Shown: piece by piece, positions 1,655 through 2,240 of the stretch
Layout: every line of letters begins with the position of its first letter
Position numbering within the stretch: the stretch's first letter is position 1
Origin: Escherichia coli
GTDB lineage: Bacteria; Pseudomonadota; Gammaproteobacteria; Enterobacterales; Enterobacteriaceae
Assembly: GCF_003334815.1 (NCBI RefSeq)
Contig: NZ_QOWO01000015.1
Reading direction: 5' to 3' (one strand)
DNA: 64,000 bases
Notes under the pieces: generated by a model
Database searches by the model: none
What the model was told of the DNA's origin: nothing
Seen by the model: only the letters and a program-made list of their open reading frames with translations
Position numbers and translations under genes: made by a program

Positions 1655-2240
1655 CTATCCCATCAGCGGGTTTTTCCCTTCCCGACGTAACATCTGACAC
1701 AGCGCGATTAGCGGTAAACCAACCAGCGTGTTAGGATCACGCCCCTCTAAACGCTCAAACAGCGTAATGCCAAATCCTTCACTCTTAAAGCTACCCGCGC
1801 AGTGCAGGGGATGCTCTTTACGCACGTAATTATCAATCTCCGCCTCGCTCAGGTGACGGAAATGGACGTCAAAAGGCTCCACTTCTGTTTGCAGATGCCC
1901 ATTCGCCGAATTAAACAACGCCAGTCCAGTAATAGAAGGTGACGATATTGCCGCTGGCTTTGCGTAATTGCAGACGGGCATTTTCTTCCGTTAACGGTTT
2001 ACCGGTGATTTCGCCATCAAGAACACATACCTGGTCTGAACCAATAATTAAATGATCCGGATAACGTGACGCCAGAGATTGCGCTTTTTCTTGTGCCAGT
2101 CGAAGCACCAACTGTCGCGGTGATTCGTCGCTGCGTGGGGTTTCGTCGACCTCTGGTGCTGCACATTCAAAAGAGATTTGTAGTTTTTCCAGAAGAGCGC
2201 GACGCCATGGCGAGGTGGAGGCTAAAATAAGTTTAGGCAT
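1655..2240 (-). pseudogene. yceF: Maf-like nucleotide pyrophosphatase YceF, reading frame broken by a single-base insertion near 1933
   Basis: Two overlapping minus-strand ORFs in different frames (1911..2279 carries [14 protein letters not shown]...NIVTFY; 1655..1981 carries [12 protein letters not shown]...NPLMG) that together make one 194-aa Maf protein; junction reads TTC TAT TAC TGG where TTC TAT ACT GGA would keep frame. Confidence 0.8.

Follow-up and report, generated by a model that had tools for sequence, protein, structure and literature searches.

The minus strand of the window (the whole 64,000-nucleotide stretch of Escherichia coli DNA analysed here) carries yceF, the gene of a Maf-like pyrophosphatase, at positions 1655-2240, where it appears in the ORF list as two overlapping open reading frames (1911..2279 and 1655..1981) lying in different frames. 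A sequence-only reading of this region had attributed the split to a single-base insertion and had left two alternatives standing, namely an inactivating mutation in a conserved housekeeping gene or a sequencing or assembly indel. The locus raises two questions: whether the extra base is genuine, and what is left of YceF if it is.

The inserted base and the interrupted reading frame

Translation of the minus strand from 2240 down to 1655 began with MPKL and continued in the native frame to NIVTFY, giving 103 native residues (codons 1-103, 1932..2240). These were followed by the out-of-frame tail TAC TGG ACT GGC GTT GTT TAA (1911..1931), which encodes YWTGVV and the premature TAA stop at 1911-1913. 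Counted from the ATG at 2240-2238, the predicted product has 109 amino acids. The downstream part of the gene (1655..1930), comprising codons 104-194 and the native TAG stop at 1655-1657, has lost the start frame; its sequence is intact and still 100% identical to the wild type, and this lack of decay is expected for a recent mutation.

Base-by-base alignment with MG1655 over 701 bases revealed two differences only. The first was an extra T in the gene strand at window 1931/1932, which turns TCTATAC into TCTATTAC (aligned, TTCTA-TAC in MG1655 and TTCTATTAC in the window; on the plus strand, an extra A at 1931/1932). One of the two bases at 1931..1932, which read TT in the gene strand and AA on the plus strand, is the insertion; other E. 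coli have a single T there, so that the site is a T to TT change with no homopolymer. The second difference was a synonymous CTG to CTA change at Leu20 (L20L, window 2181), which is private to a sub-branch of the lineage and younger than the frameshift. The insertion is a deterministic sequence difference and not a matter of chance.

With the extra base removed, the gene encoded a continuous protein of 194 amino acids that was 100% identical over all residues to E. coli YceF (b1087; PDB 4JHC) and was also the same as WP_001125202.1, the yceF product annotated in MG1655 and NCTC9038. The ORF list, the translation and the MG1655 alignment thus bore out the split into two minus-strand frames by one inserted base, and the junction sequence, the count of 103 residues and the restored 15-residue reading given earlier were all correct. 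The YceF sequence assumed in that reading was accurate as well, since the native protein does run on to 194 residues in both PDB 4JHC and WP_001125202.1.

Distribution and inheritance of the insertion

An alignment to other E. coli genomes, which the sequence-only reading had suggested, was made with a 61-nt query centred on the insertion. The query matched 5,425 of the 5,426 complete RefSeq E. coli genomes, and the extra T was found in none of these 5,425: there was no exact 61-mer match, and all matches had at most 98.4% identity. Because the insertion is missing from all of them, an intact yceF is the norm in the species. The CTA change at 2181 was likewise absent from all 3,892 matching genomes. 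The locus shows the pattern of a frameshift pseudogene, with an intact orthologue in close relatives (MG1655 and NCTC9038) and an indel followed by a premature stop in the window.

The exact aberrant peptide was looked up in a collection of 15 billion proteins. The 122-aa ORF product ending in ...TFYYWTGVV was on record as CAM9194660.1; the allele is already in public databases, where the name of the full enzyme has been given to the truncated ORF by annotation pipelines. The same 122-aa product was present in Logan run assemblies, on six contigs, five of them 50-200 kb long. Three contigs (L005-L007), separately assembled from SRR3823859, SRR8723274 and SRR11281015, carried the identical extra T, and over 11.5-12.3 kb they differed from the window by just one or two substitutions, with no further indel. 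The contigs from SRR8723274 and SRR11281015 had the extra T and lacked the change at 2181, while the contig from SRR3823859 had the extra T, the change at 2181 and two further SNPs. The assembly of the window may itself derive from one of these Logan runs, though not from those that differ at 2181. This nested pattern, in which all contigs have the extra T and only some the change at 2181, means that the frameshift came first and was inherited while the lineage diversified. By their flanking SNPs, the contigs of this lineage are from related yet non-identical isolates, and the persistence of this lineage across several isolates, each sequenced independently, gives direct evidence for tolerance of the lesion.

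We considered whether the real genome might nevertheless have an intact yceF, the extra base being an error of sequencing or assembly. Among assembly errors, indels of one base are the most frequent, and the absence of the insertion from all 5,425 complete genomes speaks for such an error as well. That these errors reach databases is illustrated in the same gene: the representative of a 90% cluster (P0002) carried a different insertion, an extra A located 15 nt upstream of the window's insertion at about window 1945 (AATATC to AATAATC). This extra A occurred on 16 short Logan contigs (ERR1049xxxx runs and SRR25684933; loci L010-L014), which come from backgrounds that diverge by up to about 1.2% and each contain further stray 1-bp indels, and it is probably a recurrent sequencing artefact. 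For the same reasons (short contigs, divergence of up to about 1.2% and stray indels nearby), it was rejected as a second independent knock-out of yceF. Whereas the extra A shows the pattern of an artefact, the allele of the window behaves in the opposite manner. At least three independent runs gave long, clean contigs that have the same extra T and differing flanking SNPs; the insertion is confined to one genetic background, and its site is not a homopolymer. Moreover, apart from the icd/e14 junction, no other indel was found in about 52 kb when the window was compared with MG1655 or NCTC9038, although this stretch offers 57 homopolymer runs of at least 6 bases as chances for error.

The three Logan runs and the NCBI protein record, with the nested flanking SNPs, document a heritable lesion. 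Taken together, the extra T shared by separate runs, the nested SNPs and the clean window argue for an inherited frameshift and against an assembly error. The insertion is almost certainly genuine, and the assembly-indel explanation, to which we give very little credence, is largely refuted. Between the two alternatives left by the sequence-only reading, the same extra T in three independent runs and the lack of any other indel in the window favour the genuine mutation. Here, the exact lookup of an aberrant peptide in independent run assemblies told a real indel from an artefact without recourse to reads.

Very probably, then, yceF has become a pseudogene in a single natural lineage of E. coli through a genuine, vertically inherited +1 frameshift. 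A single T would have been inserted after codon 103 and passed on vertically. Ribosomes starting at the normal yceF ATG would make 103 native residues and six wrong ones and would stop 86 codons early. As in other single-base frameshift pseudogenes, essentially all relatives have an intact orthologue, a single indel leads to a premature stop, the downstream remnant is undecayed, and inheritance is vertical within a narrow clade; in contrast to the more typical slippage in a run, the T to TT change of the window is non-homopolymeric.

Predicted fate of the truncated protein

E. coli YceF (PDB 4JHC/4LU1) belongs to the YceF subfamily of Maf nucleotide pyrophosphatases (Tchigvintsev et al., 2013; PMC3899018). 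It is a single-domain Maf protein with a seven-stranded sheet and an alpha/beta fold, its KM for the hydrolysis of m7GTP is about 33 uM, and its dimer interface is formed by residues 155-193 (PMC3899018). The signature motif is S10-R13-E33-K52-D69-K81 and the subfamily motif is W12-Q70-E154; replacement of R13, K52, D69 or K81 by alanine abolishes activity, and the E154A protein keeps wild-type activity (PMC3899018).

In this numbering, the translated part at 1932..2240 holds S10, R13, E33, K52, D69 and K81 as well as the subfamily residues W12 and Q70. All six signature residues were counted in the translated N-fragment, within residues 10-81. E154 and the dimer interface (155-193) are encoded only in the out-of-frame remnant at 1655..1930, so the full subfamily motif is missing from the product. 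The N-fragment still matched the Maf profiles, namely Pfam PF02545 (Maf) with E=6e-28 over positions 1-100 of 187, and TIGR00172 over positions 1-104 of 185; the remnant covered TIGR00172 positions 105-185. Against the TIGR00172 cut-off of 117.15 bits, the N-fragment scored 136.5 bits, the remnant 98.2 bits and the restored protein 249.5 bits. The ORF of the window does not span the full fold, as the stop lies at 1911-1913 and profile coverage extends only to position 100-104. Compared with YceF b1087, which has the same genomic context, the window ORF is broken after codon 103 and its 109-aa product is without E154 and the dimer interface.

Without residues 104-194, the product would lack close to half of the Maf fold, including the dimer interface and a portion of the nucleoside pocket, and it is most likely an unstable or inactive fragment. 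Since the six catalytic residues are kept and E154A has wild-type activity, we infer inactivity from the truncation of the fold. The cell would accordingly be expected to be without the house-cleaning 7-methyl-GTP pyrophosphatase activity of YceF. The word "inactivating" in the sequence-only reading is accordingly a prediction, made for a fragment that retains all six signature residues. The description as a conserved housekeeping gene is right in that yceF is intact in the species, but its product is a house-cleaning enzyme that the cell can dispense with, and housekeeping should not be read as essential. In the Keio collection, yceF is reportedly dispensable; a search of the literature found no paper testing a yceF deletion. 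The lesion may carry no fitness cost, and the frameshift is an ordinary lineage-specific pseudogene of a dispensable house-cleaning enzyme.

Two other readings would preserve some YceF function. The locus might be split or partly functional, either through a 109-aa fragment with some or altered activity or through reassembly of this fragment with a C-terminal fragment started at the ATG at 1981. The S-R-E-K-D-K signature lies wholly within residues 10-81, the score of the N-fragment is above the TIGR00172 cut-off, the ORF 1655..1981 has the native frame and begins with an ATG at 1981, and the remnant is undecayed. However, half of a single-domain, seven-stranded alpha/beta fold would be gone, and the ATG at 1981 is preceded by a weak, badly spaced GGAAG and would yield a product beginning with 17 out-of-frame residues. 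The undecayed remnant is equally expected of a recent mutation, and the arrangement occurs in one lineage only, with no sign of selection for it. We regard a split or partly functional enzyme as very unlikely. Even less credible is a rescue of full-length YceF by +1 ribosomal frameshifting, whether programmed or spontaneous and efficient, or by transcriptional slippage, to which we assign next to no probability. The frames share about 70 nt (1911-1981), within which a +1 shift at any point would rejoin them, and the 0-frame stop (GUU UAA U) could pause ribosomes; like prfB (RF2), the locus has two overlapping frames and requires a +1 shift for a full-length product. Unlike prfB, the yceF of the window lacks conservation of the shift (0/5,425 complete E. 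coli genomes), a slippery site with a Shine-Dalgarno stimulator, and any autoregulatory logic. Were the shift to occur at the stop, the core of the protein would still contain seven wrong residues. Inspection of the minus strand over 1905-1990 found no prfB-like CUU UGA C site, no GGAGG-type Shine-Dalgarno-like stimulator at the right distance upstream and no long A/T homopolymer for transcriptional slippage. Judged by these features, the gene is not a member of the programmed +1 frameshift genes (prfB / RF2), and programmed +1 frameshifting is in practice excluded.

Within the pseudogene reading, it is also conceivable, though very doubtful, that the loss of YceF, or the presence of a 109-aa fragment with all signature residues, is non-neutral for the lineage. 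Growth or division may be freed from a Maf-type brake, or the fragment may have residual or altered nucleotide binding. The sole apparent second hit in yceF looks artefactual, which leaves such a departure from neutrality without positive support. A literature search found no paper on a yceF frameshift allele; the combination of yceF and frameshift retrieved only an unrelated Bacillus YceF/TerC protein. The allele can serve as a strain marker for tracking the lineage, and its biological weight is small. It also offers a natural null or near-null allele of yceF in a wild-type background, which would be useful for the poorly defined role of the YceF branch of Maf proteins in vivo.

Gene neighbourhood and genetic background

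The yceF gene is monocistronic and convergent with rluC, and it is followed by a REP-type repeat at 1575-1647. On its other side it is divergent from yceD-rpmF-plsX-fab with SraB in between, the same arrangement as in the known E. coli context. The SraB sRNA is present at full length in the yceF-yceD intergenic region (Rfam RF00077, 210.6 bits; 2234-2402, plus strand). On the opposite strand, the coding sequence of yceF shares its first 7 nt with the 5' end of SraB. Since yceF is monocistronic, faces rluC and is followed by the REP repeat, a polar effect on its neighbours is not expected; the insertion lies more than 300 nt from SraB, and an effect on neighbouring genes is not expected on that account either. 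A simple scan for promoters and terminators found nothing above chance expectation. The palindromic repeat in the yceF-rluC gap scored just under the naRNA4 threshold on both strands, and the rne 5' UTR regulatory element (RF00040, 260 bits) was located at window 36-372 on the minus strand.

Compared with MG1655, the window has 11 scattered substitutions in the first 51.8 kb and 14 over its whole length, mostly transitions. At plsX codon 42 (window 3389) the window has Pro (CCC), as do 4,899 of the 5,425 complete genomes, and MG1655 has Ser (TCC); in these alignments the minority allele is that of the K-12 reference. Many wild isolates matched 25-kb stretches of the window with just one or two mismatches. 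NCTC9038 differed from window 1-51,860 at five positions in 51.8 kb, which were the yceF insertion, yceF L20L, ycfP E121E, ycfT V155G and nagK R21W. A mutator or mutagenised K-12 derivative was considered as the source of these changes and rejected, because the apparent plsX S42P is the majority allele, wild isolates match the window, and NCTC9038 is close to it. By these comparisons, the background is that of a wild, natural phylogroup-A-like strain, not K-12, with a handful of private changes.

The substitutions in ycfT (V155G, 30347), nagK (R21W, 34298) and ycfP (E121E, 21150) differ from both MG1655 and NCTC9038 and, judged by best-hit bit scores, occur in none of the complete genomes; two, ycfT V155G and nagK R21W, alter amino acids. 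Three more substitutions relative to MG1655 lie beyond the e14 site at 56132, 59188 and 61119, which by MG1655 coordinates correspond to the ycgZ-bluF interval, pdeG and the ycgH pseudogene, respectively. The e14 prophage of MG1655 is absent, and the window joins icd straight to post-e14 K-12 sequence (51854-52069, onward to 53841); NCTC9038 has a different prophage at the same icd site. The 3' end of icd in the window is 100% identical to the icdC copy of MG1655, and this identity, together with the absence of e14, accounts for the 28 apparent mismatches to MG1655 at 51865-52058. At its far end, the window contains an IS10-type end (63843-64000) adjoining ymgJ/ymgI, where MG1655 has no element. 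This IS10-type element, elsewhere annotated as an IS4-like ISVsa5 family transposase, is present in 1,028 of the 5,426 complete genomes, often in multiple copies.
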